Source: Minisyncoccota bacterium
GTDB lineage: Bacteria > Patescibacteriota > Microgenomatia > PFEM01 > JAFGMK01
Length of the DNA stretch: 64,000 nucleotides
NCBI GenBank assembly: GCA_016927565.1
Contig: JAFGMK010000015.1
Location: 1,149 to 65,148 of the forward strand
Reading direction: 5' to 3'
Below, in pieces: positions 1 to 21,588 of this stretch (positions are counted from its first letter, which is position 1; each line of letters starts with the position of its first letter). The notes beneath the pieces are model-generated. The model ran no database searches. It was given only the letters and a program-made list of their open reading frames with translations, and was not told the origin of the DNA. Both the position numbers and the translations under genes were made by a program.

Positions 1-891
1 CTGGGTTTTTTTGCCTGGCAGTTTGCTTTCGGCGATTTTCTCCGACGGGTTTTTATCACCCGGAGGATTTCGTTGGGAATCTTTAATCATTTCTCCTTTT
101 ATCATGCCTTTTTTTGGCGGGAATATGGCCTGATTTCCTTCTTGGCTCTTTTGGGTCTGATCAGGGGTTTTTTGACCAAAGAGAAGAAACACTTTTTCCT
201 GGCAACTGTTTTGGGGGTATATTTAGGAATAGTTTTCTTTTTTTTGCCTTGGCTGGACATTAAATATCTGTTGGGGGTTTTTCCGGTTTTTTTCTTTGCT
301 TATTTGGCGTATTTTTTGGATGATTTGGCAGAAGGTTGGTTTGGAAAAAAAGGCCTTATTAAAGCCGTTTTTTTGTTTTTATCAATTGTTTTCATTATTT
401 TTAATGGTCATAAGTTTACCTTTAGGCCCCGGGTTTATTATTCGCCTAATGCCGACATGCGGCGGATTCCTTTGGTAGATTATAATTTGGTTTATGCCAA
501 GATAAGGTCTCAAGTTGGTAAGGGCGATCAGACCGTTGCAGTGGTGGATACCTGGGGGGACAGGATTGCCTGGTATTTGGGACGGGATTATCCGGCTGCT
601 TTTTGGTTACGAAAACAGAAGAACTATCAATTGAAAGGCGGAAAAAAAATTGATACGATTTACCACTACGGGGTAATTTTAAATGAAGCTGATTTGAAGT
701 CGGTTATTCAAGATTATCCGCAGGGATTTATCTTTATTGACGGCCATGAATTGCCCTTTTTGCCAATTGATGCGCTTGATTACCTTCGGGATAATTTAAA
801 GCCGGAGCTGGAGTTTACCCGCTTTTCCTTAGACCCTGATCCCTATGACACTTGGCCGGCTTGGCTTTATTCTTGGGGCGTGAAAGGGTAA
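1..891 (+). CDS. C-terminal part of a GT-C (GT39/ArnT-like) membrane glycosyltransferase; gene continues upstream of window (open frame from nt 1)
   Basis: Frame open from position 1 with no stop. Hydrophobic N-part, then a soluble C-terminal domain resembling the C-termini of the other GT-C paralogs in this cluster (3090..4694, 11942..13408). Confidence 0.45.
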   Translation: MGFFAWQFAFGDFLRRVFITRRISLGIFNHFSFYHAFFWREYGLISFLALLGLIRGFLTKEKKHFFLATVLGVYLGIVFFFLPWLDIKYLLGVFPVFFFAYLAYFLDDLAEGWFGKKGLIKAVFLFLSIVFIIFNGHKFTFRPRVYYSPNADMRRIPLVDYNLVYAKIRSQVGKGDQTVAVVDTWGDRIAWYLGRDYPAAFWLRKQKNYQLKGGKKIDTIYHYGVILNEADLKSVIQDYPQGFIFIDGHELPFLPIDALDYLRDNLKPELEFTRFSLDPDPYDTWPAWLYSWGVKG

Positions 892-2120
892 AATCAAATC
901 CAGTGAAGCGAAAAATTGCTAAAGACACCCTGGTTTTACTGTTTTCCCGCTTTGGTTCCCGGCTTTTGATTTTCGGTTTTGGAATTTATGCGGCAAGGGT
1001 TTTGGGTTCAGTCAATTTTGGGAAAGTCGTTTTTGCTTCCGCTTTTATCTTAACTTTTACTCCTTTGGCTGATTTTGGGCTGGAAAACTTTCTTTTAAGA
1101 GAAGTTAGCCGCCGCCCGAATCAGAGAATGAAGATAATTAAAGATCTTTTTTACCCCCGAATTCTTTTGGCCGGCCTGGCGTATTTTTTAGCGCTGGCAT
1201 CAGCTGTTGTTTTGGGTTTCGAAAGTGAAGATTTAATTAATGTCAGTCTTTATGGCTTGATGTTGATCCCCTATTCTTTGAATTATTTTTTTCTGGCCTA
1301 TTTTAATGCCCAGGAAAAGTTTATTAAGTCGGCTTTGCTTAAGTTTTTTTACCCCCTGGCTCATGTTTTGCTGGGCCTGCTTTTTTTAATCTTGGGATTT
1401 TCCTATCGCTGGCTTTTTTTGGCCGTGGTTTTGGGAAACCTGTCTTCGGCTTTGGTTTTGCTTTTTTTCTATCCGCAAATAATTAAACAGTTTTCTTTTT
1501 CCGGCCGGCTGTTAAAAAAAGTCCTTTGTCAAACTTGGCCGTGGGCGGCTTTGATTTTTATTGCTGTTTTTTATCTGCGGCTGGATGTGATTATTTTAAA
1601 AAAAATTGCCGGTAGTCAGGCGACCGGACTTTACGGGCCGGTATCAAATCTGGTTCAGACCAGTCTTTTAATTCCTCAGTCATTCGCCTTGGCTCTTTTT
1701 CCCCTTAGTTCTCGATTGGTTAAGTTGAACAAATTCAAAATGAAAAGAGTTTATCTCCGCGGCTTGGGGATTTTATTTTTGGCTTCTTTACCCATTGTTG
1801 GTTTCGGGATTTGGCTTAGTCCTTTTTTAATCCCTTTGATTTTTGGCCAAGAATACCAGGTTTCAATCCCGGCTTTTCAAGTGGCTTTTTTAAGTCTGAT
1901 TTTGTTTTTTGTCAATGCTTTGCCCGGGAATGTAATTCTTAATTCCAAAAAAGTTAAAGGCTTTATTCCCTGGGCGATAGCAAATTTGATTGTTAATCTT
2001 GGTTTAAATTTAACTTTAATTCCTTGTTTGGGTTTTACCGGCGCAGCTTGGGCAAAGCTTTTTTCCGAATTTTTTGGTTTCTTAACTAATAATTTATATG
2101 TTTATCGGATTCTGGGTTAA
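852..2120 (+). CDS. Wzx-like polysaccharide/oligosaccharide flippase (MOP superfamily), multi-TM; alternative GTG start at 903
   Basis: About 12 predicted TM helices. N-terminus VKRKIAKDTLVLLFSRFGSRLL is typical of Wzx/polysaccharide biosynthesis proteins. An AAAGGG RBS-like motif lies 15 nt before the GTG at 903. Confidence 0.6.
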   Translation: MAGLALFLGRERVKSNPVKRKIAKDTLVLLFSRFGSRLLIFGFGIYAARVLGSVNFGKVVFASAFILTFTPLADFGLENFLLREVSRRPNQRMKIIKDLFYPRILLAGLAYFLALASAVVLGFESEDLINVSLYGLMLIPYSLNYFFLAYFNAQEKFIKSALLKFFYPLAHVLLGLLFLILGFSYRWLFLAVVLGNLSSALVLLFFYPQIIKQFSFSGRLLKKVLCQTWPWAALIFIAVFYLRLDVIILKKIAGSQATGLYGPVSNLVQTSLLIPQSFALALFPLSSRLVKLNKFKMKRVYLRGLGILFLASLPIVGFGIWLSPFLIPLIFGQEYQVSIPAFQVAFLSLILFFVNALPGNVILNSKKVKGFIPWAIANLIVNLGLNLTLIPCLGFTGAAWAKLFSEFFGFLTNNLYVYRILG

Positions 2121-3085
2121 TGAAAAAAAAGATTCTGAGTTTGATAATTCTTTCTTACAACACTAAGAAAATATTGCAGGATTGCTTAGGAAGTCTCCGG
2201 AAGGCTTCTGTTCCGGGAGGCTATCTGTTGGAAATAATTGTAGTCGATAATGGCTCTGTTGATGGCAGTGCGGCATGGTTGCAGAATTGGGCTTCCCGCT
2301 CTCTGACGAACCGGTTTGTCAGAGAAAAGAAAAACTTGGGATTTGCTCTGGGGAATAATCATGGATTAAAGATTGCTTCGGGAGATTTTGTTATGCTTTT
2401 GAACTCAGACACGATTGTTCGGAAGGATGTGTTTGAAAAGCTGGTTTTTTATCTTGAAAAAAACCCTCGGATAGGAGCGGTTTCTCCTCTTTTGCTCCTT
2501 CCGGATGGTCAGCCCCAAAATGATTATTATTTCCGTTTTCCCAATCTTTGGCAGCTGGCTTTTTATCATCAGCCTCTTTTGAGGCCGCTGGTGATGAAAA
2601 CACCGCTGAAATGGCTGGTAGTTAGTCGAGGAAAGACGATGACGGATCGCCTGAAACCTCCGGTTCAAGATCGAATTACTCAACTTGCTTTTGAAGTTGA
2701 TCAACTTCCCGGCGCCGCTCTTTTAGTTCGTCGGAAAGTTTGGAACAAGGTGGGGGGATTGGATTCAGACTATCACTTCTTATTTGAGGATGTTGACTGG
2801 TGTTGGCGAGCCAGAATTAGAGGTTTTAAGCTCGCGGTTGTTCCTGAAGCAAAAATTACTCACTTAGGAGGGGCAAGCTGGAAAAAAAAGCTTCAAAAAA
2901 ATAAAAACCAATTTTATTACCAATATTTTGCCTCAATGCTATTGTTTGTTAACAAGCATTATTCTTTTTTTGCTTCTTGGGTTTTTTTTCTTTCAATTCT
3001 GGTTAATTTTTTAACCACTTTTAAATGGATTTTGGCCTGGGATTTTTTAAAAAACCAAGGTAAACAAAAGAAACTTTGGGTTTAG
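2120..3085 (+). CDS. GT2 family glycosyltransferase (Dpm1/polyprenol-phosphate sugar synthase-like)
   Basis: N-terminal LSLIILSYNTKKIL...VVDNGSVDGS, then DxD region (NSDTIV), as in GT2 enzymes. Confidence 0.75.
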   Translation: MKKKILSLIILSYNTKKILQDCLGSLRKASVPGGYLLEIIVVDNGSVDGSAAWLQNWASRSLTNRFVREKKNLGFALGNNHGLKIASGDFVMLLNSDTIVRKDVFEKLVFYLEKNPRIGAVSPLLLLPDGQPQNDYYFRFPNLWQLAFYHQPLLRPLVMKTPLKWLVVSRGKTMTDRLKPPVQDRITQLAFEVDQLPGAALLVRRKVWNKVGGLDSDYHFLFEDVDWCWRARIRGFKLAVVPEAKITHLGGASWKKKLQKNKNQFYYQYFASMLLFVNKHYSFFASWVFFLSILVNFLTTFKWILAWDFLKNQGKQKKLWV

Positions 3086-3089
3086 AAAG

Positions 3090-4694
3090 ATGCTGTTTTT
3101 AATTTTGACACTAGCCTTAGGATTGCGTCTGATTAATTTGAATCAATCCTTATGGCTGGACGAAGCGGTTCAGGCGATTACCAGCCAGGAAAATTTTCCG
3201 GCTCTTTGGGCCGAGCTTCAGGGCGACTTTCATCCGCCCTGTTATCATCTTTTAATGTGGGTTTGGGTCAGGTTTTTCAAAGCCTCGGAAATTTCTTTAA
3301 GACTGCCCTCAGTTTTGTTTGGAGTGGGAACGGTGGGAGTGATTTGGAGAATAGGAAGGCAGTTCCTATTAACTGGTTCTACAGGCGCTTCAGAGAAAAC
3401 AATCCTGGATCGAACCGGCGCTTTAGAAAATAACGCTTTCGGGTTGTTGTTTCCAGGCTTAGCTGCGTTTTTTCTGGCAATTAATCCTTTTCATGTCTAC
3501 TATTCCCAAGAAACGCGGATGTATTCAATGGCTGCTTTTTTTACTGCTTTGTCAATGTTTTTTTTTCTTAAGGCAATTGGCAGTAGGGGAAAAATCAGAA
3601 AAACAAAATCGACTTCGTTTTTGAGTTGCTCTTGGGGGGGATATTTTTTAGCAACCTTGGTATTGGTTTATACCGACTATTACGGTTGGTTAATCCTGTT
3701 AGCTCAAAATCTGATCTTTGTCTTTTTCAAAAGGCGCCATCAGCAGTCTGATGAATCGGTTTGCCGGACCGGGTTAACCTTGAGGAAATGGGTCGGAGTT
3801 CAAGCCCTGATCGGTTTTTTTTATTTGCCGTGGTTGGGAATGTTCTTGACTCAACTAAAAACCGGTCAAATGGCTATGACCAGCCTGCCCGAGTGGGGGC
3901 AATTAGTCAATTTAATTTTTTTAAAGGCCCTGCCTCTAACTATGCTTAAGTTTATCATTGGCCGGATAACGATCTTTAACAAAAAAATTTATTTCCTGGT
4001 AGCTGGCAGTCTGTTGGTGTTTTATGGTAGTTTGATTGGTCCCGGCCTTTGGAAAGAGAAAAAAAATCGATTTATGATTAATTGTTTGCGATCAACTGTT
4101 CTTGTCTGGCTCTTTTTGCCGTTGCTGGCGGCTTGGTTGATCTCTTTGCGGGTACCTAATTACCAGCCTTTTCGATTGCTTTTAGTTCTGCCTGCTTTTT
4201 GTCTCCTTCTTGCCTGGAAAATCACTCAAACTAAGAGTTCAATGATTCGAATCATTGAACTCTTAATGGTAGTAGGAGTCAGTCTGGTTTCACTGCGAAC
4301 TTATTACTCTAATCCTTATTTTCACCGCGAGGATTGGCGGGGTTTGGTCCATTTTCTTGATCATGATTGGCAGACAAATGCCATCTTGCCCTCCGCTACC
4401 AGCAGCTGGCCAATCAAGTATTACACCAGGCGGTTCTGTCTCTGGGATCGATCCTTGGTTTGGTATCACGGAATTAGCCAGGGGATCAGACCGGTCCGGA
4501 ATGAAGACCGCTTTGTTCTTCAGACCCACCTTCAAGGAAAAGAAAAAATTTACTTTATCCGTTACCTTGTTCCTCTTTTTGATCCCGAGGAAAAAATTAA
4601 TGCCTGGTTGGAGGAAGAAGGATTTGTTAAAATTAAAGAAATCAGCTTCAACCAAATCCCTCTTTGGGTATTTGAGAAGCAGGAAAGCTCATGA
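3090..4694 (+). CDS. GT-C fold membrane glycosyltransferase (GT39/PMT/ArnT-like)
   Basis: Polytopic membrane protein whose first loop carries SLWLDEA, the DE motif of GT39/GT83 enzymes. Soluble C-terminal domain. Confidence 0.65.
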   Translation: MLFLILTLALGLRLINLNQSLWLDEAVQAITSQENFPALWAELQGDFHPPCYHLLMWVWVRFFKASEISLRLPSVLFGVGTVGVIWRIGRQFLLTGSTGASEKTILDRTGALENNAFGLLFPGLAAFFLAINPFHVYYSQETRMYSMAAFFTALSMFFFLKAIGSRGKIRKTKSTSFLSCSWGGYFLATLVLVYTDYYGWLILLAQNLIFVFFKRRHQQSDESVCRTGLTLRKWVGVQALIGFFYLPWLGMFLTQLKTGQMAMTSLPEWGQLVNLIFLKALPLTMLKFIIGRITIFNKKIYFLVAGSLLVFYGSLIGPGLWKEKKNRFMINCLRSTVLVWLFLPLLAAWLISLRVPNYQPFRLLLVLPAFCLLLAWKITQTKSSMIRIIELLMVVGVSLVSLRTYYSNPYFHREDWRGLVHFLDHDWQTNAILPSATSSWPIKYYTRRFCLWDRSLVWYHGISQGIRPVRNEDRFVLQTHLQGKEKIYFIRYLVPLFDPEEKINAWLEEEGFVKIKEISFNQIPLWVFEKQESS

Positions 4695-5818
4695 AGATTG
4701 GCATTGACATTTCTCAAATTGTTCATGGCACCGGCGTTTCTTTTTACACCCGGAACCTGGTGCGGGCTTTGGCTGAGATCGATAAGGAGAACGACTATCT
4801 CTTAATTGGCACTTCTCGGGGAAGATATCAATTCTTAGCTGATTTTGGGACCGAAATTAATAAAATTAACCCTCTTTTTTTAAACCGTTTTTTCCGCTGG
4901 CCGGTCAGCCTGGCTGAGATTTGGGCTAATCGGTGGCGGTTTGGCAGCTTGGAAAAGTTGGTTGGCCCGATGGATATCTTTCATTCTTCAGACTGGCTCC
5001 AGCCGCCGTGCCAAGCTGTTAAGGTGACCACAATTCACGACTTTGGCTTTTGGCGCTATCCCCAAACTGCCCATCGGAAGATCAGATCCGTGATGAAGCG
5101 GCGGTTGCTTTTGGTCAAAAAAGAGGTTGATAAAATAATCTGCGTTTCCCGGGCAACCGCTAAAGATGCGGTGCAATTGCTTAAGGTTCCTCCGGAAAAA
5201 ATTGAAGTCATTTTTGAAGCTCCGGGGTTGAAGTTTCGAAAAGTACCGATCTCGAAGGTGGCAAAGATTAAGGATAAATATGAGATTAAAGGTGACTACT
5301 TTTTGGCTGTTGCTACCATTGAGCCCCGGAAAAACTTTGGTGGAATTCTGGAAGCGGTGGCCCCGATTTTAAAAAAAAAGCCTAATTTGTCGCTGGTGGT
5401 AGTTGGCCGGCTGGGTTGGGACAAATTAATGGGGCGGATAATGAGTCAGACCGATCGGGTGAATTTGGTTGGCTATATCCCAACCAGTGATCTGGTTGCC
5501 TTGTATAATGGATCTTTAGGCTTAATTTATCCTTCTTTATACGAAGGTTTTGGCCTGCCTGTTCTTGAAGCCTTTGCCTGCGGTTGCCCGGTGGTGACCT
5601 CCAACATTTCCAGCCTGCCGGAAATTGCCGGCCGTTCAGCAGTTCTGGTCAATCCTTTGAAGGCTGAAGAAATTGGCGCAGGGATTAAGCAAGTCCTGGC
5701 TAAAAGAGAAGAGCTCATTCGCCGGGGTTTTGAAAGGGTTAAAAAATTCTCTTGGAAAAAAACAGCAGAACAAACACTTGCTCTTTATGAAAAAACTTAC
5801 CGAGCTTTTAAAAACTGA
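4691..5818 (+). CDS. GT4 family glycosyltransferase (GT-B, retaining)
   Basis: N-terminal MKIGIDISQ...; C-terminal EGFGLPVLEAFACGCPVVTS, the GT4 EX7E region. Confidence 0.8.
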   Translation: MKIGIDISQIVHGTGVSFYTRNLVRALAEIDKENDYLLIGTSRGRYQFLADFGTEINKINPLFLNRFFRWPVSLAEIWANRWRFGSLEKLVGPMDIFHSSDWLQPPCQAVKVTTIHDFGFWRYPQTAHRKIRSVMKRRLLLVKKEVDKIICVSRATAKDAVQLLKVPPEKIEVIFEAPGLKFRKVPISKVAKIKDKYEIKGDYFLAVATIEPRKNFGGILEAVAPILKKKPNLSLVVVGRLGWDKLMGRIMSQTDRVNLVGYIPTSDLVALYNGSLGLIYPSLYEGFGLPVLEAFACGCPVVTSNISSLPEIAGRSAVLVNPLKAEEIGAGIKQVLAKREELIRRGFERVKKFSWKKTAEQTLALYEKTYRAFKN

Positions 5819-7286
5819 AACAGTTTGGCTGATCTTGTTATTTGGCCTGGCGGCCACTGTCCGGTTCCGCGGTTTGAACCAATTGGCTTTCTTTACCTAT
5901 GACCAGGCGCGGGATGCTTTTTATATTAAAAGAATTCTTGACGGCGAGTTCAGATTAATCGGCACTCAAAGTTCTATTCCCGGACTTTACACCGGCCCTC
6001 TTTATTATTACCTGATGGCGCCCTTTTTGTTTCTTTTCCGCTTAAACCCTGTTGGTTTGGACTATGCCACTGCTTTCATTTCTCTGTTGACTTTGTTTTT
6101 ACTGTTCGGGCTTTTAAAAAAAACTACGAAGAGTTCCTTTCTGGCGATAATTTTTACCGCTCTCTATGCTTTTTCGCCCCAAATTGTCAATCAAAGCCGT
6201 TTTGCCTGGAATCCGAATCCCTTGCCTTTCTTAACCCTCTTGTTTTTATTTTCCCTTAAAAAGATTATCTTTCAGGGTGAAAAGATTTTTTTGCTAATTT
6301 TGGCCTTGACTATCGGCGCCGCCATTAATCTCCATTATTCGGGTTTGGCGCTAATTTTTATTCTCCTGCCGATTGGCTTTTTTTTTGCCAAATCTTTAAA
6401 AGAGACGTTTGATTTAAAAATGGTTGTTATTTTTCTAGTTTTCCTGGGATTATTTTTCCTGCCTCTTTTTCTTTTTGACTGCCGGCACGGTTTTATCAAT
6501 GCCCGAAGTTTAATTTCTTATCTCCGGCAAGGGCCGGCCCCCGAAATTTCCCCGCCGCCGTTTTGGACCGGACTATGGGATAAGTTTGTTTTTCTTTTTG
6601 GGCTGGCAGTGCCTCTGACTGGTTTTTGGCTAAAATTTTTAACCGGAGTCAGTCTGTTTTCGGGTTTGGGGTTTTTTGTAAAGAGCTTAAAGGAAAAAAC
6701 CTTTTTTTCTCTGGTTTTTTTAAGCCTTTTTTCCGGCGTTCTGTTTGCCTGCTTTTATCAGGGTAGTTTTTTTAATTTTTACCTGACATTTTTGTATCCG
6801 CTTCCCTTTTTGTGGCTTGCCTCTTTTTTTGGTCAAAAACCTGAGAGAAACAGGAGCTGGTTTTTTTTGGGTCTAGTGGTGGTTATAATTCTGGGAAGAA
6901 ATTTTAAAAGCCTTTCCCGCCCGTTTCGCCCGGCCCGAACTATTAAAGATCTGGAGAGAGTAGCTTTATTTTTAAGTCAGAAGATAAACCCTGGAGAAAA
7001 CTTTAACCTGGCTGCTCTTTATCGGGGGCAGAACCGTTTTGATCATAATGCGGTTGATTACCGCTATTTTTTGGAAGCAAGATATAAAATCAAAGTTCCG
7101 GGATGGGATGTTTTGGATTACCGGAATGCTCAAATTTGTTACTTAATCAGTGAAGTCGGTCAGGTTGAGATTGGGGCAGTTAAATTTTGGGAAACTCAAT
7201 TAATGGGAGCTCTCAAAGAGGAAAACCATTGGGATTTGGGGGAAGATTATTTGGTTTACCGGTTGGTTAAAGACAAAATGGAGTAA
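5787..7286 (+). CDS. Polytopic membrane protein, probable GT-C glycosyltransferase; start moved to in-frame ATG at 5787 (MKKLTELLK...)
   Basis: The longer ORF (5673) overlaps the previous gene by 146 nt, so the ATG at 5787 is more plausible. Many TM helices; YDQARDA loop motif near the N-terminus resembles the GT-C DE-type motif. Confidence 0.5.
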   Translation: MKKLTELLKTETVWLILLFGLAATVRFRGLNQLAFFTYDQARDAFYIKRILDGEFRLIGTQSSIPGLYTGPLYYYLMAPFLFLFRLNPVGLDYATAFISLLTLFLLFGLLKKTTKSSFLAIIFTALYAFSPQIVNQSRFAWNPNPLPFLTLLFLFSLKKIIFQGEKIFLLILALTIGAAINLHYSGLALIFILLPIGFFFAKSLKETFDLKMVVIFLVFLGLFFLPLFLFDCRHGFINARSLISYLRQGPAPEISPPPFWTGLWDKFVFLFGLAVPLTGFWLKFLTGVSLFSGLGFFVKSLKEKTFFSLVFLSLFSGVLFACFYQGSFFNFYLTFLYPLPFLWLASFFGQKPERNRSWFFLGLVVVIILGRNFKSLSRPFRPARTIKDLERVALFLSQKINPGENFNLAALYRGQNRFDHNAVDYRYFLEARYKIKVPGWDVLDYRNAQICYLISEVGQVEIGAVKFWETQLMGALKEENHWDLGEDYLVYRLVKDKME

Positions 7287-7295: not shown

Positions 7296-8405
7296 ATGTT
7301 GATCGGGATTGACGGGAACGAAGCCAATGTCAGAAGCCGGGTAGGAAGTAATCAGTATTCTTTTGAAATTCTCTGGGGCTTGTATTTGTTAAGCCGAAAA
7401 CGAGATTTTGATTTTTTGATTTATTTAAAAGAAGCTCCGTTGGCTGATTTGCCGCCGGAAAAAAGCCGCTGGCAATACCGGAGAATTGGTCCCAGCAGGT
7501 TTTGGACTCGTTTCGCTTTGCCGCTGGAACTAACTTTCCGGCGGCCCCGGCCGGCGGTCTTTTTTTCTCCCGGCCATTACAGCCCCTGGTTTTTACCGAT
7601 GCCTCTGGTTGTTTCTATCATGGATTTGGGATATCTTCGTTTTCCAAAGCAATTCCGGCGGCGCGACCTTTATCAGCTGACCAGCTGGACTGAGTCTTCG
7701 ATCAGGAAGGCCAGGCGGGTGCTGGCTATCTCCCGGTTCACTCGGAATGATATAATTAAAACCTACCGGCTTGAGCCTGAAAAGGTAGTAGTGACACCTC
7801 TTGGGTATAAAAAAATACGGATAAAAAATTATAAACTGCAAATCGAAAGAATCAGGAGAAAATATCGGATTAGAGGTGATTATATTTTGTTTCTGGGAAC
7901 TTTAAAACCGAGTAAGAACATCGAGGGCTTAATTGAAGCTTTTGCCAGACTGGATTTGGCCGGAAACAATCTAAAACTGGTGATTGCCGGTAAAAAAGGC
8001 TGGTTTTTTAAAGATATTTATGAAAGGGTAAAAACTTTGAGTCTTGAAAAAAGGGTTATTTTTACTGATTTTGTTCCGGAAAAAGAAGCGCCGATTTTAT
8101 TAGCTGGGGCTTTGGTTTTCGTTTTGCCTTCTTTTTGGGAAGGATTTGGTTTGCCGGCCCTTCAATCAATGTCCTTGGGAACGCCGGTGGTGGTTTCCCG
8201 GGTAGCGAGTTTGCCTGAAGTAGTTGGACCGGCGGGGATTTTGGTAAACCCTCAAAAGCCTGATGATATTGCCCGGGGAATTAAGAAAGCTTTTAAGGAA
8301 AGAAAAAAAAGAAGCCGGCTGGGCTTGCTCCAGGCGAAAAATTTTTCTTGGGAAAAGTGCGCTCGGAGAACTTTAGCAGTCCTGGAGACTGTCGGTCAGG
8401 AATAA
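7296..8405 (+). CDS. GT4 family glycosyltransferase
   Basis: MLIGIDGNEA... N-terminus; EGFGLPALQSMSLGTPVVVS C-terminal GT4 motif. Confidence 0.8.
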   Translation: MLIGIDGNEANVRSRVGSNQYSFEILWGLYLLSRKRDFDFLIYLKEAPLADLPPEKSRWQYRRIGPSRFWTRFALPLELTFRRPRPAVFFSPGHYSPWFLPMPLVVSIMDLGYLRFPKQFRRRDLYQLTSWTESSIRKARRVLAISRFTRNDIIKTYRLEPEKVVVTPLGYKKIRIKNYKLQIERIRRKYRIRGDYILFLGTLKPSKNIEGLIEAFARLDLAGNNLKLVIAGKKGWFFKDIYERVKTLSLEKRVIFTDFVPEKEAPILLAGALVFVLPSFWEGFGLPALQSMSLGTPVVVSRVASLPEVVGPAGILVNPQKPDDIARGIKKAFKERKKRSRLGLLQAKNFSWEKCARRTLAVLETVGQE

Positions 8406-14622: not shown

Positions 14623-15529
14623 TCTTTCAGTAATAATCCTCAGTTTTAATACCAGAAGCCTGCTTTATGATTGTCTTCGGTCAGTCTTGAAAGCGGCGAA
14701 AACGGCTTCTGCTTATCAAATTCAGATAATTGTGGTTGATAATGCTTCTAAAGATAAAAGCTCTCAGATGGTCAAAAAAGCCTTTCCTCAAGTTGGTTTA
14801 ATCCAAAACAGAAAGAATCTTGGTTTTTCTGCCGGGAACAATGTCGGGCTTAAAAAGGCCCGGGGAGGATATGTTCTGTTTTTAAATTCCGATACCATAG
14901 TTTCCCCCCGGGCTTTTCAGGAAATTATCACTTTTCTAAATCAGAATCCCGGGGCCGGAGCGGTTTCGGCTAAAACAATGCTGGCCAGCGGCAGGATGGA
15001 TCCCGACTGTCATCGGGGTTTTCCCACTCCCTGGGCCTCTTTGACCTATTTTTTGGGCTTAGAACGGCTTTTTCCCCGAAGCCGTATTTTTGGCCAGTAT
15101 CATCAGTTTTTTAAAAATCTGGATAAGGTTCACGAAATAGATGCCGGCGCAGGCGCTTTTATGGTTGTGAGGAGAAAGATGCTTCGGCAGGTTGGTAACT
15201 GGGATGAAGGTTATTTTTTTTACGGCGAAGATTTGGATTTTTTCTACCGGATTAAGAAAGGCGGCTGGCAGGTATTGTTTTATCCCCGTCCTTTATTAAC
15301 CCATTATAAGGGGGCCAGCTCAGGTTTGAGAAAAGAATCCCGGGGAAAGACCAGGCCGAGCCGGAAAACCCGTCTTCAGGTTGCCAGGGCTTCAGTTCAG
15401 GCGATGGAAATTTTTTACCGTAAGTTCTATCGGGATGTTTATCCCCGATGGCTAACCTGGCTCGTTCTTTTAGCCATCAGACTGAAAGGTTTTTTGAGAA
15501 TCACCGCTAATTATCTAAGAAAAGATTAA
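14606..15529 (+). CDS. GT2 family glycosyltransferase (start moved to ATG 14606, MRKKVDLSVIILSFN)
   Basis: VDLSVIILSFNTRSLL...VVDNASKDKS...LNSDTIV. The longer ORF would overlap the upstream gene by 56 nt. Confidence 0.7.
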   Translation: MRKKVDLSVIILSFNTRSLLYDCLRSVLKAAKTASAYQIQIIVVDNASKDKSSQMVKKAFPQVGLIQNRKNLGFSAGNNVGLKKARGGYVLFLNSDTIVSPRAFQEIITFLNQNPGAGAVSAKTMLASGRMDPDCHRGFPTPWASLTYFLGLERLFPRSRIFGQYHQFFKNLDKVHEIDAGAGAFMVVRRKMLRQVGNWDEGYFFYGEDLDFFYRIKKGGWQVLFYPRPLLTHYKGASSGLRKESRGKTRPSRKTRLQVARASVQAMEIFYRKFYRDVYPRWLTWLVLLAIRLKGFLRITANYLRKD

Positions 15530-15554
15530 TTCTGGCCGAATTAAAAGAGGTTTT

Positions 15555-16688
15555 ATGAGAATTGGGATTGATGCCCGCTTCTGGGGGCTGGAGCATACCG
15601 GTATTGGCCGCTATGTAATGGCCCTGGTTAGCCACCTTGAAAAAATTGACTCGGGAAATGATTACTTTATTTTTTTAAGAGAAAAATACTTTAACCGGCT
15701 GGAATTTTCCAATCCCCGGTTCAGAAAAGTTTTGGCTGATTTTCCTCATTATTCTTTAAAAGAGCAGATCGCTTTCCGGCGGGTTTTGCTCCGCCAGAAA
15801 CTTGATTTGGTTCATTTTCCCCATTTTAATTTGCCTGTTTTTTACCCCGGTCGTTTTGTGGTGACGATTCACGATTTGATTAAACATGAATCAAGGGGGC
15901 CTTTAACAACTACCCGCTTCAAAGCCTTTTATTACTTTAAATACCTGGGTTATTTACTGGTTCTGAATTTAGCCTTGAGGCGAGCGAAAAAAGTGATTGT
16001 TCCCAGTTTTTGGTGGAAACGAAAGTTAATCAAAAAATTCGGTCTGGAAGCGGATAAAATCGGAGTGACTTATGAATCGGTGAGTGAGGCTTTTTTTCGC
16101 AAAAATGATTTGAAGATCGGAAAGAAAATTTTGACCAAATATGGCATTCAGACTCCCTTTGTGATTTATACCGGCAATCTTTATCCTCATAAAAATGTTT
16201 TAACCTTAGTTAAGGCGATTAAAAAAATTAATCGGGAAAGGCGGCTTTTTTTAGTAATTGTTTGCGCCAAAAGTGTTTTTTGGCAGCGTTTCCAAAAAGA
16301 AATTAGTCAATTGGGGGCGGGAGATTTAGTTATTTTGGCCGGTTTTGTCTCTGATGCGGAGCTGACGAATCTTTATCGGTTGGCAGAGGCATTTGTTTTT
16401 CCGACTCTTTTGGAGGGTTTTGGCTTGCCGGGTCTGGAGTCAATGGCGGCTGGCTTGCCGGTTGTTTGTTCCCGCTCTTCTTGTTTGCCTGAGATTTATC
16501 AAAAAGCGGCTTTGTATTTTAACCCCAAAAAAGCGATTGATATTAAAGAAAAAATTGAACTGCTTTTGGAAAATAAATATCTACGAAAAGAACTTATTCG
16601 AAAAGGTAAAAGTCGGGTAAAGGGTTTTAGCTGGGAGAGGATGGCTCGGGAAACGATTGAGATTTATCAACAGGCAATTGAGGTTTAA
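15555..16688 (+). CDS. GT4 family glycosyltransferase
   Basis: MRIGIDARFWG... N-terminus; C-terminal EGFGLPGLESMAAGLPVVCS. Confidence 0.75.
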   Translation: MRIGIDARFWGLEHTGIGRYVMALVSHLEKIDSGNDYFIFLREKYFNRLEFSNPRFRKVLADFPHYSLKEQIAFRRVLLRQKLDLVHFPHFNLPVFYPGRFVVTIHDLIKHESRGPLTTTRFKAFYYFKYLGYLLVLNLALRRAKKVIVPSFWWKRKLIKKFGLEADKIGVTYESVSEAFFRKNDLKIGKKILTKYGIQTPFVIYTGNLYPHKNVLTLVKAIKKINRERRLFLVIVCAKSVFWQRFQKEISQLGAGDLVILAGFVSDAELTNLYRLAEAFVFPTLLEGFGLPGLESMAAGLPVVCSRSSCLPEIYQKAALYFNPKKAIDIKEKIELLLENKYLRKELIRKGKSRVKGFSWERMARETIEIYQQAIEV

Positions 16689-16703
16689 ATCAGCCTTCTT
16701 ACT

Positions 16704-17867
16704 TTGGAAATGAACGCCGGTGTGAAGACAGACTTAGATAAATTGCGCGTGGCCTTGGTTTATGATCGGGTCAATAAATGGGGTGGGGCGGAAAGAGTTT
16801 TATTGGCCCTTAAAAAAATTTTTCCTCAAGCTCCTCTTTTTACCAGCGTTTATTTACCAAAATCGGCTTCTTGGGCTAAAAATTGGCCGGTCAAACCCTC
16901 CTTCGGGCAAAGATTTCCTCTGGTTAAAAAACGGCATGAATTTTTTCCCTGGTTAATGCCGTTTATTTTTGAAAGCTTTGATTTTAGGGGTTATCAACTG
17001 GTAATTTCCGTTACCAGTGCCGAAGCCAAAGGAATTATCACACCGCCGGAAACATGTCATCTTTGTTATTGTCTGACGCCGACCCGATATCTTTGGAGCG
17101 GACGGCGGGTTTACTTTGATTCGCCGGGTTTTGGCTGGCTGGACGGAATTGCCAAAAAGGCTTATCGTTTTTTTCTGCCGTTTTTGTTAAGGTGGGATAA
17201 GGTAGCGGCGCAAAGGCCGGATAGTTATCTGGCCATTTCCGGAGAAGTTCGGCAAAGAATAAAAAAAAATTACCGGCGAGATGCGGAGATAATTTATCCG
17301 CCGGTAGACCTTGATAAATTTAAAATTAAAGATGATAAATTTAAGACCAGAAAAAAAAATTACTTCTTGGTGGTTTCCAGGCTGGTGCCTTATAAGCGGA
17401 TTGACTTGGTAATCGAAGCTTTTAATCAGCTTGACCGACCGCTTAAAATTGCTGGTATCGGCTCTCAGATGTCCTTTTTAAAGAAGATGGCGGGGCCGAA
17501 AATTGAATTTTTGGGCCAGTTGACAGAAAAGGCGCTTTTAAGCTACTATAATTCTTGCCGAGCGGTCATTTGCCCGCAGGAGGAAGATTTTGGCTTGGTT
17601 CCCCTTGAAGCTCAAGCTTGTGGTAAGCCGGTAATTTCTTACCAAGGAGGAGGGGCTTTAGAGACGGTCGTTAAAAACCGGACAGGGGAATTTTTTTATC
17701 CGCAAACAGCCGATGCCTTAGCCCGGACAGTACTCGGTTTTAATGTCGGCAGGTATTGTCCGGATGATTGTCGGAGAAACGCTCAAAGATTCAGCCAGAA
17801 ATTATTTATTAGGAAATTTACTAAGAAAACGGAGGAGATATGGAAAAAATTCTCTCAAGAAAATTAA
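16704..17867 (+). CDS. GT4 family glycosyltransferase
   Basis: GT-B fold with C-terminal EEDFGLVPLEAQACGKPVIS motif. Confidence 0.65.
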   Translation: MEMNAGVKTDLDKLRVALVYDRVNKWGGAERVLLALKKIFPQAPLFTSVYLPKSASWAKNWPVKPSFGQRFPLVKKRHEFFPWLMPFIFESFDFRGYQLVISVTSAEAKGIITPPETCHLCYCLTPTRYLWSGRRVYFDSPGFGWLDGIAKKAYRFFLPFLLRWDKVAAQRPDSYLAISGEVRQRIKKNYRRDAEIIYPPVDLDKFKIKDDKFKTRKKNYFLVVSRLVPYKRIDLVIEAFNQLDRPLKIAGIGSQMSFLKKMAGPKIEFLGQLTEKALLSYYNSCRAVICPQEEDFGLVPLEAQACGKPVISYQGGGALETVVKNRTGEFFYPQTADALARTVLGFNVGRYCPDDCRRNAQRFSQKLFIRKFTKKTEEIWKKFSQEN

Positions 17868-18970
17868 AAAAACACCTCTATGTCTCAATTCTTTGCGGGG
17901 GGGTGGGAACAAGACTCTGGCCGCGGTCGCGTAAAAAAACTCCTAAGCAGTTTATTGATCTTTTTGGGGAAAAAACGATTTTTCAAAGGACAATTGATCG
18001 GGCAAAAAAGATTACCACCCCGGATAAAATTTTTGTTGTTACCGGGTCGATTTACGTTGATCAGGTTTTAACTCAGGCGCCGGATTTACTTTTAAGAAAT
18101 ATCATTGCCGAACCGCAGGGTAAGGACACTGCTCTGGCAATGGCTGTCGGGACGGCTTTCATTTACCAAAAAGACCCCGAGGCAATAGTGATTAATCTGG
18201 CCTCTGATCATGCCATCCCGCTTAAAGAAACCGAAACGTTTGTTAAAGATCTTCACGCCGCGGCTCGAGCGGCTGAGGAATTAAAGGACAAAATAATTAC
18301 TGTCGGCATCAAGCCGTCTTATCCTCATACCGGCTATGGCTACATTGAAGCAGGTGATTATCAAACTAAAATTGCCGGCAAGAAAATTTATGAAGTGGCT
18401 CAATTTACGGAAAAGCCGGATCGTCAGACAGCTGAGAAATTTATTGCCACCAAAAAATATTTCTGGAATGCCAATCTTTATACCTGGAAAGCAAAAGTTT
18501 TCTTGGCGACAATTAAAAAAATTGCGCCTAAATTAAGCCAGTCAGTGGACAATATCAGGGAATCAATCGGCAAGTCGGCGGAGGCTAAAGTTCTACGACG
18601 GGTTTATAAAGAGGCAGAAAAGATCTCAATTGATTATGCCGTATCGGAGAAAGCTGAGAATCTGGCTTTAATTGCCGCTGATTTCGGCTGGGATGACATC
18701 GGCGATTGGAATGTGGTTTATGAACGGGCCAAAAAAGACAAAGACGGCAATGTGGTGATTAAATGGGGGGGCAATGGCGGTTATGTGGTGGTTGAAAGCA
18801 ATAATAACCTGATCCATTTTAATAATCAGTTGTTGGCTTTGGTTGGGGTAAAAGATCTGATTGTGGTTGATACTGACGATGCTCTTTTAATCTGTCACCG
18901 CCAGGAAGCTCAGAAGGCAAAAGAAATTGTTAATAAAATTAAAGAAGAAGGCAAGTTGAAATATTTATAA
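17840..18970 (+). CDS. manC: Mannose-1-phosphate guanylyltransferase (GDP-mannose pyrophosphorylase)
   Basis: ILCGGVGTRLWPRSRKKTPKQF N-terminal NTP-transferase motif and overall ManC/CpsB-like length. Confidence 0.7.
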   Translation: MEKILSRKLKKHLYVSILCGGVGTRLWPRSRKKTPKQFIDLFGEKTIFQRTIDRAKKITTPDKIFVVTGSIYVDQVLTQAPDLLLRNIIAEPQGKDTALAMAVGTAFIYQKDPEAIVINLASDHAIPLKETETFVKDLHAAARAAEELKDKIITVGIKPSYPHTGYGYIEAGDYQTKIAGKKIYEVAQFTEKPDRQTAEKFIATKKYFWNANLYTWKAKVFLATIKKIAPKLSQSVDNIRESIGKSAEAKVLRRVYKEAEKISIDYAVSEKAENLALIAADFGWDDIGDWNVVYERAKKDKDGNVVIKWGGNGGYVVVESNNNLIHFNNQLLALVGVKDLIVVDTDDALLICHRQEAQKAKEIVNKIKEEGKLKYL

Positions 18971-18984
18971 AAACAGAAGCTGAT

Positions 18985-19608
18985 ATGTTTTATGAGACAG
19001 TTAAAAGGGTTTTGGATCTTTTGGTGGCAGTCATTTTGGCGATTATATTTTCACCCTTTTTCCTGATTGTTCCGGTAATTATTAAATTGACTTCTCCGGG
19101 GCCGGTTTTCTACGGTCAAAAGAGAGTCGGCAAGAATGGCCGGGAATTTACCCTTTATAAATTCCGGTCAATGGTAGTCAATGCAGATGAAATTATTGCC
19201 AAAGACAAAGACCTGTTAAAAAAATTTCAGGATTCTGATTGGAAACTGGATATGAAGGATGATCCGAGGATTACTAAATTTGGGGCCTTTATTCGGACTT
19301 TTACCATTGATGAATTTCCTCAAATTTTAAATGTTTTTCGGGGGGAGATGAGCGTGGTTGGTCCCCGGGCTTACCGTCAGGAGGAAATAAAACAACAATT
19401 GGCTAAATATCCCAAGGCCAGATCCTTGATGAAAGATATTTTGAAGATAAAGCCGGGAATTACCGGACCCTGGCAAACCTCGGGTAGAAATGAAGTTCCT
19501 TTTCTTCAGCGAGCCAAACTGGATGCGGCTTACTATCGTTCCCGCTCGATTTGGCAGGATATCTTAATTTTATTGAAAACTCCCAAGGCGATGTTATCTA
19601 AATGGTAA
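18985..19608 (+). CDS. Polyprenyl-phosphate sugar-1-phosphate transferase (bacterial sugar transferase, WbaP/CpsE C-terminal type); initiating enzyme
   Basis: RVLDLLVAVILAIIFSPFFLIVPVIIKLTSPGPVFYGQKRVGKNGREFTLYKFRSM is the canonical Bac_transf domain. Confidence 0.8.
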   Translation: MFYETVKRVLDLLVAVILAIIFSPFFLIVPVIIKLTSPGPVFYGQKRVGKNGREFTLYKFRSMVVNADEIIAKDKDLLKKFQDSDWKLDMKDDPRITKFGAFIRTFTIDEFPQILNVFRGEMSVVGPRAYRQEEIKQQLAKYPKARSLMKDILKIKPGITGPWQTSGRNEVPFLQRAKLDAAYYRSRSIWQDILILLKTPKAMLSKW

Positions 19609-19617
19609 AATAGAAAA

Positions 19618-21588
19618 ATGGACTTGGAAAAAATAAAACTGATAGAAAATGATGATTCTTCTGCTTCCGCGGAGGAAGTGGACAAAAAGCGTCCGGAAAA
19701 TAAAAAAAGGTTTTTTTTATTCAGACCCGGTGTCCTTCTTATCTTGTCAGGTCTTCTGATTTTAGCAGGGGCTGCGTTGATTTTTTTTCTGGTTTCGCCC
19801 GCCCGCCGTCTCCAGAGTAGTTTTTCGCTTTTGAATCAGGAACTGGGGAAAACGGCTGTTCTTTTTGAAACCCAGGATTTCAAAGGCGCTCTGGCTCAAG
19901 CAGAGGTGATTGATCAGAGTTTGGGAGAAGTAGCCGATGACTATCAAAAACTGACCTGGATCCGGATTCTGCCGTATTTCGGCCGTTTTTATCAGGATGG
20001 AGAGCATTTCTTAAAAGGGGGCCGGCATTTAATCTCTGCTGCCAAAATTACTACAACAGCGCTTCTGCCTTATTATGACCTTCTGGGTTTTGAAAAAGCC
20101 GGAACTCCATCGGCTCCGATGACGATCGAGGAGCGTTTGGCTTTGGTTCTTGACACTCTGGACAAGATAATGCCTCAGGTTGATGAGATCAGCCGGGAAC
20201 TTTCTTTGGCCAAAACTGAAATTGACAAGGTTGATTCCGGCCGATATCCCGAGGAGCTTTTTGGCCAAAAAATCAGGAGCCGGCTGATTGGAGCCGGTAA
20301 TTTAATAAAGGGACTGGAGTTGACGGTTGCCGAAATTAAGCCGATTGCGGCCTATCTTAAACCTCTTTTGGGGATTCCGGAGAAGAAAACCTATTTCTTG
20401 CTTTTTCAGAATGATGCTGAGCTCAGGCCAAGCGGCGGTTTTATGACGGCCTATGCTTTTTTATCGGTTCATCAGGGTAAATTTACTCCGCTGGAGTCCC
20501 ATGATATTTACTGGCTTGATAATCAATTCGGCAATCGGCTTAAAGCGCCCGAACCGATTTTAAAATACTTACCGAATGTTGATTCATGGCATTTAAGAGA
20601 TATGAATTTATCACCTGATTTTGCTGCTTCGATGGCTGTTTTTTGGGAAAATTATCAAAAGCTTCCCGGGGCCCAAAAGGTTGATGGAATTATTGCTTTG
20701 GATACGAAAGTTTTGGTATCTATTTTGGAAGTTTTGGGTGAAATCGGTGTTTCCGGTTGGGGTAATTTTTCCGCCGAAACTGATCCGCGCTGCGATTGTC
20801 CTCAGGTTTTCTATGAGCTGGAGCGGTTTGCTGATCAGCCGGTGAGCACCTGGCGGAAGGAGCGGAAAGCCATTATCGGCCCTCTGATGCATTCAATTTT
20901 AGCCAACATTATGAATTCTCCCCGGAAAAAATGGCCGGAATTTCTGAATGTTTTCTTTACCAGTTTAAAAGAAAAACATTTACTGTTTTATTTTTTTGAC
21001 CCTGATCTCCAGAAAGCGATTGAGGCTTTAAATGCCGGCGGCCGGATCAAAAATTTTGAAGGAGATTATTTTCATCTAAATGACTGTAATTTTGCCGGAG
21101 CCAAGTCTAATATGTATATTCAGCAAACTGTGCTTCAGGATGTTGAGATCAGTTCGGATGGGTCGGTGGCCAAAAAAGTAACTGTGACTTATAAAAACCC
21201 GGCACCAGCGAGCAATTGCAATCTTGAAAAAGGCGAATTGTGTCTTAATGGTTTTTACCGGAACTGGTTCCGGATTTATGTTCCTTTGGGGAGCGAGCTT
21301 CTGGATTTTAAAGGATCCGAAGAGGAAGTCTTGACTTATGATGATTTAGGCAAGACTGTTTTTGAAGGATTCTTCGGCAAAACTCCGGGAACCTCACTTA
21401 AGCCCGAAGGGAAATTAACCTTAACCTTTAATTATCGTTTGCCTTTTAAAGTTAACAAAAGCCAGTTTTATCGTCTTTTAGTTCAGAAACAGCCGGGAGC
21501 CCTGAGTCATGATTATGAGCTCAAAGTTAACAGCCAATCAGAAAACTTTGAATTAAGCTCTGATCAGGAATTTGAGATCCGATGGTAA
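19618..21588 (+). CDS. Large membrane-anchored extracytoplasmic protein, DUF4012-like
   Basis: Single N-terminal TM helix, 650 aa. FLLFQNDAELRPSGGFMTAYAF resembles the conserved DUF4012 core, recalled from memory and not searched. Confidence 0.4.
   Translation: MDLEKIKLIENDDSSASAEEVDKKRPENKKRFFLFRPGVLLILSGLLILAGAALIFFLVSPARRLQSSFSLLNQELGKTAVLFETQDFKGALAQAEVIDQSLGEVADDYQKLTWIRILPYFGRFYQDGEHFLKGGRHLISAAKITTTALLPYYDLLGFEKAGTPSAPMTIEERLALVLDTLDKIMPQVDEISRELSLAKTEIDKVDSGRYPEELFGQKIRSRLIGAGNLIKGLELTVAEIKPIAAYLKPLLGIPEKKTYFLLFQNDAELRPSGGFMTAYAFLSVHQGKFTPLESHDIYWLDNQFGNRLKAPEPILKYLPNVDSWHLRDMNLSPDFAASMAVFWENYQKLPGAQKVDGIIALDTKVLVSILEVLGEIGVSGWGNFSAETDPRCDCPQVFYELERFADQPVSTWRKERKAIIGPLMHSILANIMNSPRKKWPEFLNVFFTSLKEKHLLFYFFDPDLQKAIEALNAGGRIKNFEGDYFHLNDCNFAGAKSNMYIQQTVLQDVEISSDGSVAKKVTVTYKNPAPASNCNLEKGELCLNGFYRNWFRIYVPLGSELLDFKGSEEEVLTYDDLGKTVFEGFFGKTPGTSLKPEGKLTLTFNYRLPFKVNKSQFYRLLVQKQPGALSHDYELKVNSQSENFELSSDQEFEIRW

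Follow-up and report, generated by a model that had tools for sequence, protein, structure and literature searches.

Gene content of the locus

The first third of a 64,000-nucleotide stretch of contig JAFGMK010000015.1 from an uncultured, ultra-small bacterium of the Minisyncoccota (the whole stretch is called the window here) is occupied by a glycan-assembly array of 19 genes, which lie on one strand with neighbours abutting or overlapping (window 1–21588, ~22 kb). The array encodes four GT-C membrane glycosyltransferases (GTs; GTC1–GTC4, one clipped by the window edge), one Wzy_C-domain protein (WzyC), three GT2 and five GT4 enzymes and a Wzx flippase, together with a small priming phosphoglycosyltransferase (PGT), ManC, a WcaF-like acetyltransferase (AcT), a DUF4012 protein and one unassigned membrane protein. 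This close packing on one strand, with an order that recurs in ~80 other genomes, goes far beyond what chance would give. It is proposed below that this is probably a Wzx/Wzy-type locus for a mannose-containing envelope glycan of the Microgenomates group, built around a conserved core.

A preliminary description, made from the sequence alone, had listed these genes essentially correctly. Pfam and NCBIfam scans of the window open reading frames (ORFs) confirm Wzx, the three GT2 and five GT4 enzymes, the acetyltransferase, the Wzy_C protein, ManC and the PGT, and with them the Wzx/Wzy-type branch that had been recognised there. The same scans confirm the suggested DUF4012 call (76.7 bits against a cut-off of 28). 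Its count of four to five GT-C proteins narrows to four, which are supported by HHalign and by PMT or PMT_2 matches, as the possible fifth is the Wzy_C protein.

The Pfam scans took in ORFs of at least 120 aa across the window (at least 100 aa up to position 26000); the cut-offs were 26.1 bits for PMT_2, 22.7 bits for PMT and 28 bits for DUF4012. Transmembrane (TM) segments and hydrophobic helices were taken from a hydropathy scan, from which the loop topology of the GT-C proteins was also deduced. Window proteins were mapped onto 82 non-redundant loci (numbered with the prefix L), and fractions give loci with the gene over informative loci. The genes are as follows, beginning with those of a variable 5′ module (1–7286).

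1–891, +: GTC1, GT-C protein (PMT_2), last 296 residues of a 524-aa protein; the first 684 nt of the gene lie to the left of the window
903–2120, +: Wzx-type (MOP) flippase; Polysacc_synt 73.8 bits, Polysacc_synt_3 65.4 bits; start as called in L001
2120–3085, +: GT2a, WbbL-type GT2 with one C-terminal hydrophobic helix; Glycos_transf_2 88.5 bits
3090–4694, +: GTC2, GT-C membrane transferase; PMT_2 23.4 bits (below the 26.1 cut-off), HHalign 98.9% against the GTC4 family
4691–5818, +: GT4a glycosyltransferase (GT-B); Glycos_transf_1 95.6 bits, Glyco_transf_4 47.6 bits; 27/39 loci
5787–7286, +: GTC3, GT-C membrane transferase; PMT 26.4 bits (cut-off 22.7), HHalign 98% against the GTC4 family

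The conserved core (7296–21588) follows.

7296–8405, +: GT4b glycosyltransferase, which opens the core; Glycos_transf_1 124.9 bits; 46/48 loci
8410–9048, +: AcT, WcaF/WbbJ-like hexapeptide O-acetyltransferase; Hexapep 59.6 bits; 53/54 loci
9045–9641, +: unassigned 198-aa protein between AcT and GT2b, with hydrophobic helices at the N- and C-terminus
9611–10492, +: GT2b, WbbL-type GT2; Glycos_transf_2 94.5 bits; 57/59 loci
10467–11939, +: WzyC, polytopic Wzy_C-domain protein with ~11 TM segments; Wzy_C 45.5 bits; 59/65 loci, plus five in which it is fused to GTC4
11942–13408, +: GTC4, core GT-C transferase of ArnT fold; PMT_2 55.3 bits
13405–14622, +: GT4c glycosyltransferase; Glyco_trans_1_4 67.7 bits; 72/73 loci
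14603–15529, +: GT2c, WbbL-type GT2 (likely start ATG at 14603); Glycos_transf_2 85.9 bits; 68/70 loci
15555–16688, +: GT4d glycosyltransferase; Glycos_transf_1 104 bits; 66/68 loci
16704–17867, +: GT4e glycosyltransferase; Glycos_transf_1 103.7 bits; 55/62 loci
17840–18970, +: ManC, mannose-1-phosphate guanylyltransferase; NTP_transferase 114.8 bits, ManC_GMP_beta-helix 64.9 bits; 54/62 loci
18985–19608, +: small monotopic PGT of 207 aa (PglC or WbaP C-terminal type), the priming enzyme, with one N-terminal hydrophobic helix; Bac_transf 207.3 bits; 54/60 loci
19618–21588, +: DUF4012 protein, N-terminal TM anchor and large extracytoplasmic domain; DUF4012 76.7 bits

The GTC1 frame is open from base 1. 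The full gene was located in a Logan contig, L001, which is 100% identical to the window over their overlap and carries it at L001:406–1980 with a precomputed PMT_2 match. GTC3 likely starts at the ATG at 5787; the mechanical ORF opens at a TTG at 5673. Wzx has ~8–9 TM segments and RfbX as its best E. coli match. Against E. coli proteins, a hidden Markov model (HMM) of the AcT orthologs reaches 83 bits with WcaF and 50 with WbbJ. The 198-aa protein gave no Pfam or NCBIfam match, and has recognisable orthologs in 14/57 informative loci, mostly of the closest lineages.

A conserved core and a variable 5′ module

The order GT4b–AcT–GT2b–WzyC–GTC4–GT4c–GT2c–GT4d–GT4e–ManC–PGT–DUF4012, followed by recO, is kept almost everywhere (the 13-gene core). 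It is found in ~80 species of the Microgenomates group, down to 35–40% identity, and each core gene is present in 84–99% of informative loci. Median identities of the core genes (32–57%) fall in the same range as those of the adjacent RecO (39%) and aminoacyl-tRNA synthetase (aaRS; 48%). Because the order is conserved, the identities match those of RecO and the aaRS, and the core is linked to recO and the aaRS gene, it is assigned as a vertically inherited envelope-glycan locus, and not as a variable O-antigen or capsule island. No description of this locus was found in literature searches.

The 5′ part (GTC1, Wzx, GT2a, GTC2, GT4a and GTC3) is a lineage-variable module. Orthologs of GTC2 occur in 22 loci, those of GTC3 are confined to the closest lineages (6/45 informative loci), and those of GTC1 are present in none of the GTC4-centred flanks. 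The Wzx–GT2a–GTC2 triad is kept in L005 and L093, and the GT2a–GTC2 pair in L009. In L091, Wzx and GT2a are separated by an inserted gene (L091:8553–8981) whose product is a bAvd-like 23S rRNA-intervening-sequence protein (121.7 bits), and a second Wzx-like gene lies downstream of GT2a.

Many public contigs of metagenome-assembled genomes with a locus of the Microgenomates type (L006, L008–L010, L031, L073 and many others) are titled as other taxa, among them 'uncultured Gammaproteobacteria', 'Candidatus Bathyarchaeia archaeon', 'Nevskiaceae', 'Pacearchaeota' and 'Eisenbacteria'. Given the conserved synteny, these titles are probably taxonomic mislabels or placeholders.

GT2 subtype and the supply of sugar donors

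All three GT2 proteins match Glycos_transf_2 at 86–95 bits and contain a GT-A domain with a DxD motif, features that are generic to GT2 enzymes and do not discriminate between subtypes. Four tests (NCBIfam ranking, PDB ranking, ortholog HMMs and a motif alignment with positive controls) agree in assigning GT2a, GT2b and GT2c to the WbbL type, predicted to extend lipid-linked sugars, and not to the Dpm1/ArnC/GtrB-type synthases. The NCBIfam ArnC model gave E-values of 2e-3 for GT2a and 2e-4 for GT2c and no match for GT2b, compared with 1e-9 to 1e-25 for rhamnosyltransferase, MftF and EpsD models. In PDB searches, the best solved relatives were chondroitin synthase, 6p61, TarP/TarS-type enzymes and GalNAc-transferases. 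The dolichyl-phosphate mannose synthase 5mlz ranked low for GT2a and GT2b (~1e-4, over the N-terminal 110 residues) and was absent for GT2c, and GtrB was absent for all three.

Ortholog HMMs from ~70 related loci rank the E. coli reference proteins in the same way: 51 bits for WbbL, 42 for WcaE, 27 for ArnC and 13 for GtrB with GT2a; 109 for WbbL, 42 for ArnC and 20 for GtrB with GT2b; and 109, 29 and 13, respectively, with GT2c. An ArnC-first ranking from a pooled 'GT2a family' HMM was discarded, as that model also contained the GT2s found upstream in L062, L065 and L068, which form a third subtype. Aligned with E. coli ArnC and GtrB and with controls from L041, L081 and L085, the three proteins share the LN(S/P)D and ED.D..C.R motifs of WbbL. 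Their acceptor-base motif is the WbbL-type (E/C)(E/D)xD..C.R, which reads FEDVDWCWR in GT2a. None of the three has the DADLQ context, the G.SKY motif or the C-terminal pair of TM helices of ArnC and GtrB, and no TM hairpin appears in the hydropathy scan. The preliminary description had called these proteins Dpm1-like and had itself held that GT2s unrelated to Dpm1 would speak against its reading; the WbbL-type assignment is such a result.

No ArnC- or GtrB-like ORF was detected at E ≤ 1e-3 among the window ORFs of at least 80 aa over all 64 kb, and no ArnC-like gene was found upstream of GTC1 in the GTC1-centred metagenome loci L091–L093. Searches for a small flippase of the GtrA/ArnEF kind, by phmmer with YfdG and by running Pfam on the membrane ORFs of 101 and 120 aa that precede GTC1, gave no family match. 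As the GT2s are of the WbbL type and ArnC/GtrB-like ORFs are lacking, the polyprenol-phosphate-mannose step is not encoded in the window. The lipid-linked mannose pathway that had been called complete thus lacks its polyprenol-phosphate-sugar synthase within the 64 kb.

Twelve more distant loci do contain ArnC-like GT2s (L041, L081, L085, L083, L073, L070, L022, L072, L079, L039, L078 and L090), so the test can detect true members. These enzymes score 130–160 bits against E. coli ArnC, have two C-terminal TM helices and lie just upstream of GT4a/GT4b (for example at L041:2574–3527, L081:1378–2421, L085:2669–3781, L083:2362–3342 and L090:1197–2132). They belong to the homologous locus of Levybacteria-type genomes, with 68–85% identity within the 120 best database homologs. 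In L083 and L090 a small ORF of 72–91 aa follows, with two predicted TM segments in L083. An apparent linkage between P0320 (ArnC-like) and P0001 (the GTC4 of the window), each listed on a contig of 9274 bp, was rejected because the contigs came from different samples.

The preliminary identification of ManC stands. E. coli CpsB scores 317 bits with the ortholog HMM, and all 55 of the 55 ORFs at the ManC position have CpsB as best match (128–233 bits); RfbA and GalF do not exceed 10 bits. These scores identify ManC as a real GDP-mannose pyrophosphorylase. At 376 aa, compared with 478 aa for bifunctional enzymes, it lacks their C-terminal phosphomannose isomerase/cupin part. Its GDP-mannose is most simply taken to be consumed by the GT4 enzymes.

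Four GT-C proteins related through GTC4

By BLASTP, the four GT-C proteins are almost unrelated to one another. Profile comparison by HHalign shows all four to be clearly homologous, GTC1, GTC2 and GTC3 matching the GTC4 family with 93–98.9% probability, using an alignment of GTC4 (A1) that was free of WzyC–GTC4 fusion proteins; Wzx and WzyC controls stayed below 1%. GTC1 matches the GTC4 family at 93% and GTC2 at 98%, and the GTC2 match to the GTC4 family spans ~430 columns. Each protein has 7–8 or more TM segments (~8 or more in GTC2) and an acidic motif assigned to the first extracytoplasmic loop: WIDEF, after TM1, in GTC1, WLDEA in GTC2 and YDQARD in GTC3. In GTC4 the acidic residues are D30 and D38 of ADHHSWRQAD, which are invariant in 26 orthologs, as are the motifs HSWRQADT and THDYYQ.

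An AlphaFold2 model of GTC4 (pLDDT 86, pTM 0.87) returned ArnT (5f15) as the top Foldseek match (E 7.7e-11, TM-scores 0.63/0.58) at 13% identity. STT3/AglB/PglB, ALG12/9, AftA and Pmt4 followed, the last in 26th place. Through their homology to GTC4, a GT-C fold would extend to GTC1–GTC3. Searches of the four proteins against PDB sequences by phmmer and with profiles gave no match at E ≤ 1, and the Pfam scans reported no PMT_4TMC domain for any of them.

Neither of two specific family identities suits these proteins. A PMT (GT39) identity for GTC4 was rejected, as Pmt4 falls behind ArnT, oligosaccharyltransferases (OSTs), ALG and AftA and no PMT_4TMC match was reported. An ArnT (GT83) identity was likewise set aside: there are no arn genes in the window, and the GT-C alignments reach at most 0.6% against E. 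coli ArnT by HHalign, in a comparison with single E. coli sequences (ArnT, WaaL, WbbH, WcaD and YfdI) that is too insensitive to classify. Use of polyprenol-phosphate- or diphosphate-linked donors on the outer face is a trait of the GT-C superfamily and is putative here.

GTC4 has more than 2000 homologs, which are annotated as GT39 or ArnT-like in Patescibacteria. Relatives are encoded by at least 571 species-representative genomes, with named carriers among Shapiro-, Curtiss-, Levy-, Gottesman-, Davies-, Chisholm- and Beckwithbacteria and the 'Microgenomates group'. The number of GT-C paralogs had appeared unusual. Loci of this lineage contain 2–4 GT-C genes or domains, with four again in the close relatives L002, L011 and L016; a four-GT-C array is therefore typical for the lineage and not exceptional.

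Fusions of WzyC with GT-C domains

In the window the genes for WzyC and GTC4 are separate and 2 nt apart. In five loci, Gottesmanbacteria among the lineages, WzyC and the GTC4 ortholog form a single ORF of ~1050 aa (L045:8318–11446, L061:8300–11443, L064:2237–5425, L065:8285–11455 and L076:8327–11449), with WzyC at residues ~5–525 and GTC4 at ~555–1040. Furthermore, 29 other loci encode a long WzyC of 1000–1100 aa with ~20 TM segments (for example L041:6800–9979, L022:6846–9986 and L079:6746–9958), and a separate GTC4 gene comes next. The C-terminal half of the long WzyC forms a further GT-C-like domain, whose loop motif is ADDF and which matches the GT-C alignments at 93–95% by HHalign and is also recovered by jackhmmer seeded with the GT-Cs of the window. 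The fusions, the extra GT-C domains and the 2-nt spacing are the strongest evidence that WzyC and GTC4 act on the same substrate outside the membrane, and they argue for a coupled extracytoplasmic step.

WzyC has the invariant residues R233, R364 and H186. It would be a polymerase of undecaprenyl diphosphate (Und-PP)-linked glycans or an enzyme of the ligase/oligosaccharyltransferase type. In the same insensitive single-sequence comparison, it gives a weak 24% against E. coli WaaL and less than 1% against WbbH and WcaD.

A DUF4012 protein follows the priming enzyme

DUF4012 has 2424 homologs and lies directly after the PGT in 47/56 informative loci. In the list of Méheust et al., it is one of the families enriched in Candidate Phyla Radiation (CPR) and Gram-positive bacteria (PMC6744442). 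An arrangement of priming GT, DUF4012 and wzz is also reported for the Bifidobacterium longum exopolysaccharide (EPS) locus (PMC5412050).

The structural model of DUF4012 (pLDDT 74) comprises a TM helix at the N-terminus, a long bundle of helices and two further parts, an alpha/beta domain and a beta-sandwich. In Foldseek searches the central alpha/beta domain weakly resembles LytR-CpsA-Psr (LCP) ligases, which take seven of the top 20 places at E ~1e-3 over ~250 columns. Sequence-profile tests of DUF4012 against LCP were all negative, with HHalign at 0.8% against four real LCP cores. An LCP-like ligase role for DUF4012 is thus a lead at the level of the predicted fold.

Proposed pathway and alternatives

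The pathway trio of priming PGT, Wzx flippase and Wzy-family membrane protein is present, and the model proposed here starts from this trio, the family assignments, the GT2 subtype, the GT-C fold, the synteny and the fusions. The order of steps, the substrates, the acceptor and the roles of WzyC, GTC4 and DUF4012 are those that we infer. ManC would supply GDP-mannose, and the small PglC-type PGT would prime undecaprenyl phosphate. On the cytoplasmic face, the five GT4 enzymes, the three WbbL-type GT2 enzymes and the WcaF-like O-acetyltransferase would build a large mannose-containing unit on Und-PP, which Wzx would then flip. Outside the membrane, WzyC with GTC4 may polymerise, ligate or transfer, or modify the unit. 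DUF4012 would act at a late extracytoplasmic step, possibly wall attachment. GTC1–GTC3 of the 5′ module could add lineage-specific decorations, with polyprenol-phosphate-sugar donors from an enzyme encoded outside the window. GT-C enzymes that cooperate with Wzx-type flippases and move whole glycans are known from the streptococcal Gac and lactococcal Wps systems (PMC10821137; PMC8035078, PMC11127046).

A Wzx/Wzy-type, Und-PP-linked envelope-glycan locus of the Microgenomates group, mannose-containing, with GT-C accessory steps and a conserved, vertically inherited core, is considered the probable explanation, with real room for doubt. Several points weigh against it. Wzx belongs to the variable module and occurs within 10 kb of GTC4 in only three other loci; its assignment to the core glycan is therefore one that we infer. 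The window Pfam scans recognised no chain-length regulator (PCP/Wzz). No dedicated ligase (WaaL or LCP) was recognised in the window, and an LCP motif search of all loci was negative. The WzyC comparisons do not separate a polymerase from a ligase role. A donor synthase for the four GT-Cs was not found in the 64 kb, and the contig stops ~1.3 kb upstream of the window, before the left border of the cluster is reached.

Several observations favour a complete route from GDP-mannose through polyprenol-phosphate-mannose to GT-C transfer (protein O-mannosylation or lipomannan-like synthesis with Dpm1-like GT2s, beside a parallel Wzx/Wzy route). The locus has a real, conserved ManC and four GT-C enzymes, a PMT-like 'DE' motif follows TM1 in GTC1 and GTC2, GTC3 exceeds the Pfam PMT cut-off, and Levybacteria-type loci carry a genuine ArnC-like GT2 beside their GT-Cs. 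Such a route is nonetheless very improbable for the window: the GT2s are WbbL-type on four tests, no ArnC/GtrB-like ORF was detected (E ≤ 1e-3) in the window or in L091–L093, the GTC4 fold puts ArnT, STT3 and ALG above Pmt4 with no PMT_4TMC reported, and use of GDP-mannose by the five GT4 enzymes is simpler. S-layer or pilin O-mannosylation, which had been offered as an example, is pure conjecture. The multiple GT-Cs per locus and the conserved ManC could also serve a membrane-anchored lipoglycan of the lipomannan/lipoarabinomannan (LM/LAM) or lipoteichoic kind, built mainly outside by GT-Cs on a lipid primer, as mycobacterial LM/LAM uses GT-C mannosyltransferases (PMC3485146). There is little likelihood of this for a locus in which a PGT, eight cytoplasmic GTs and Wzx indicate a preassembled Und-PP-linked unit, and in which neither a polyprenol-phosphate-mannose (PPM) synthase nor PimA/PimB-type lipid-primer genes were recognised.

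General protein O-glycosylation, in which a PglL/WsaB-like WzyC would move an unpolymerised Und-PP oligosaccharide en bloc to surface proteins (S-layer, pilin or others) and the GT-Cs would trim or extend it, draws on the single invariant gene set found across a whole bacterial group. Phylum-wide O-glycosylation loci, such as the Bacteroidetes lfg locus, resemble it in this respect. The lack of a recognised chain-length regulator or LCP in the locus fits as well, and by HHalign WzyC is closer to WaaL (24%, a weak signal) than to the two E. coli Wzy polymerases compared (<1%). Against this, neither a PglL_A domain nor a specific likeness to known O-oligosaccharyltransferases was detected in WzyC, no candidate acceptor protein lies nearby, and the usual histidine of the WaaL/PglL 'HN' motif is apparently replaced by TDNDYL; on balance this is unlikely, if worth keeping in mind. 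A strain-variable, horizontally acquired capsule or O-antigen-like island has the least to commend it and is regarded as exceedingly improbable. The gene content superficially resembles such loci and the 5′ module is variable, but the core order is kept in ~80 species to 35% identity, linked to recO and the aaRS gene, and the GC content is that of the rest of the window. The conserved order contradicts an island for the core, so that such a reading holds for the 5′ module only.

A bolder form of the favoured Wzx/Wzy-type pathway is possible, but clearly falls short of being probable. It would be a previously undescribed, Microgenomates-wide envelope-glycoconjugate machine, in which WzyC and the ArnT-fold GT-C operate as one extracytoplasmic unit and DUF4012 is a highly diverged LCP-like wall ligase. 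If true, it would give CPR bacteria their first defined pathway for a wall glycopolymer or for general glycosylation.

Relation to known systems

With Wzx/Wzy-dependent loci such as the colanic acid (wca) and O16 (rfb) clusters of E. coli, the locus shares a PGT, Wzx, a Wzy-family protein, GT4 enzymes, WbbL/WcaE-type GT2 enzymes, a WcaF-type acetyltransferase and ManC (CpsB), all co-directional. It differs from them in lacking the Wzz/Wzc, Wza or WaaL context, in having four GT-Cs and DUF4012, and in being conserved across a whole bacterial group instead of hypervariable. The host is presumably a monoderm CPR bacterium.

Outer-face GT-Cs acting on glycopolymers are also a feature of the multi-component transmembrane glycosylation systems of Gram-positive bacteria and others, namely GtrABC, CsbB/GtcA/YfhO, GacIJKL and the three-component pentofuranose systems (PMC8035078, PMC11127046). 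These systems can employ a Wzx-type flippase, and their adjacency of GT2, flippase and GT-C resembles window 903–4694. Their defining Und-P-sugar synthase (a GtrB/CsbB/GacI-type GT2), however, is absent from the window and present only in distant relatives such as L041. The mycobacterial and actinobacterial PPM systems (Ppm1 with Pmt, MptA–D and PimE; PMC3485146) combine GDP-mannose supply with several GT-Cs, whereas the window has no Ppm1/Dpm1-type synthase and the GTC4 fold lies nearer to ArnT, STT3 and ALG than to Pmt4 or PimE.

The lactococcal polysaccharide pellicle (PSP) pathway (WpsA–J; PMC10821137) offers a precedent for pairing a polymerase or ligase with a GT-C, as in WzyC–GTC4, as judged from its published description. 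There, a preassembled lipid-linked oligosaccharide is flipped by a Wzx-like flippase, and GT-C proteins polymerise it and transfer it to a wall acceptor. PSP synthesis starts on Und-P by a GacI-type GT2 (WpsA/B), whereas the window locus would start with a Bac_transf PGT, implying Und-PP, and has no rhamnan genes. The Bifidobacterium longum EPS cluster shares a DUF4012 gene immediately after the priming glycosyltransferase; the passage describing it gives a separate Wzz and mentions no GT-C array (PMC5412050).

The locus is notable for its Microgenomates-wide conservation, the WzyC–GT-C coupling and the PGT–DUF4012 pair. CPR bacteria (Patescibacteria) make up a large share of bacterial diversity, are mostly uncultivated and have an envelope that is biochemically almost unknown. 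A 13-gene glycan locus kept in order across such a group, near the division and cell-wall (dcw) gene cluster, likely specifies a core envelope component. The WzyC–GT-C fusions and the PGT–DUF4012 pair provide testable functional links for two poorly understood protein families, the 'GT39/ArnT-like' annotations in monoderm bacteria and DUF4012, which is also found in Bifidobacterium EPS loci. For heterologous reconstitution, and for probing with lectins or antibodies, the locus also offers concrete targets. For annotation, the combination of GT2, GT-C and ManC alone does not imply a polyprenol-phosphate-mannose pathway.

Chromosomal setting

The remainder of the window is ordinary bacterial chromosome, with genes for RecO, a class II aaRS, the isoleucyl-tRNA synthetase IleRS and ParB. 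GC content is even across the window, and that of the cluster is the same as that of the remainder. A promoter and terminator scan gave results no different from those of shuffled sequence, and operon boundaries could not be drawn.

The glycan locus sits close upstream of the dcw cluster, which includes genes for MraW, a penicillin-binding protein, Mur ligases, MraY, FtsW, MurG, FtsA and FtsZ. Four further genes (34185–38816) lie inside it, between MurA (32863–34185) and MraY (39315–40346).

34185–34949: alpha/beta hydrolase
34953–36542: extra Mur-ligase-family protein, 529 aa
36544–37803: DegT/DnrJ/EryC1 aminotransferase
37800–38816: FemAB-family protein

The extra Mur-ligase-family protein, the aminotransferase and the FemAB protein suggest a modified or branched peptidoglycan stem peptide. 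Farther along, on the strand opposite to most of the window, lies a gene for an 877-aa protein with an LCAT/PGAP1-like alpha/beta-hydrolase (lipase) domain (59643–62276, −).

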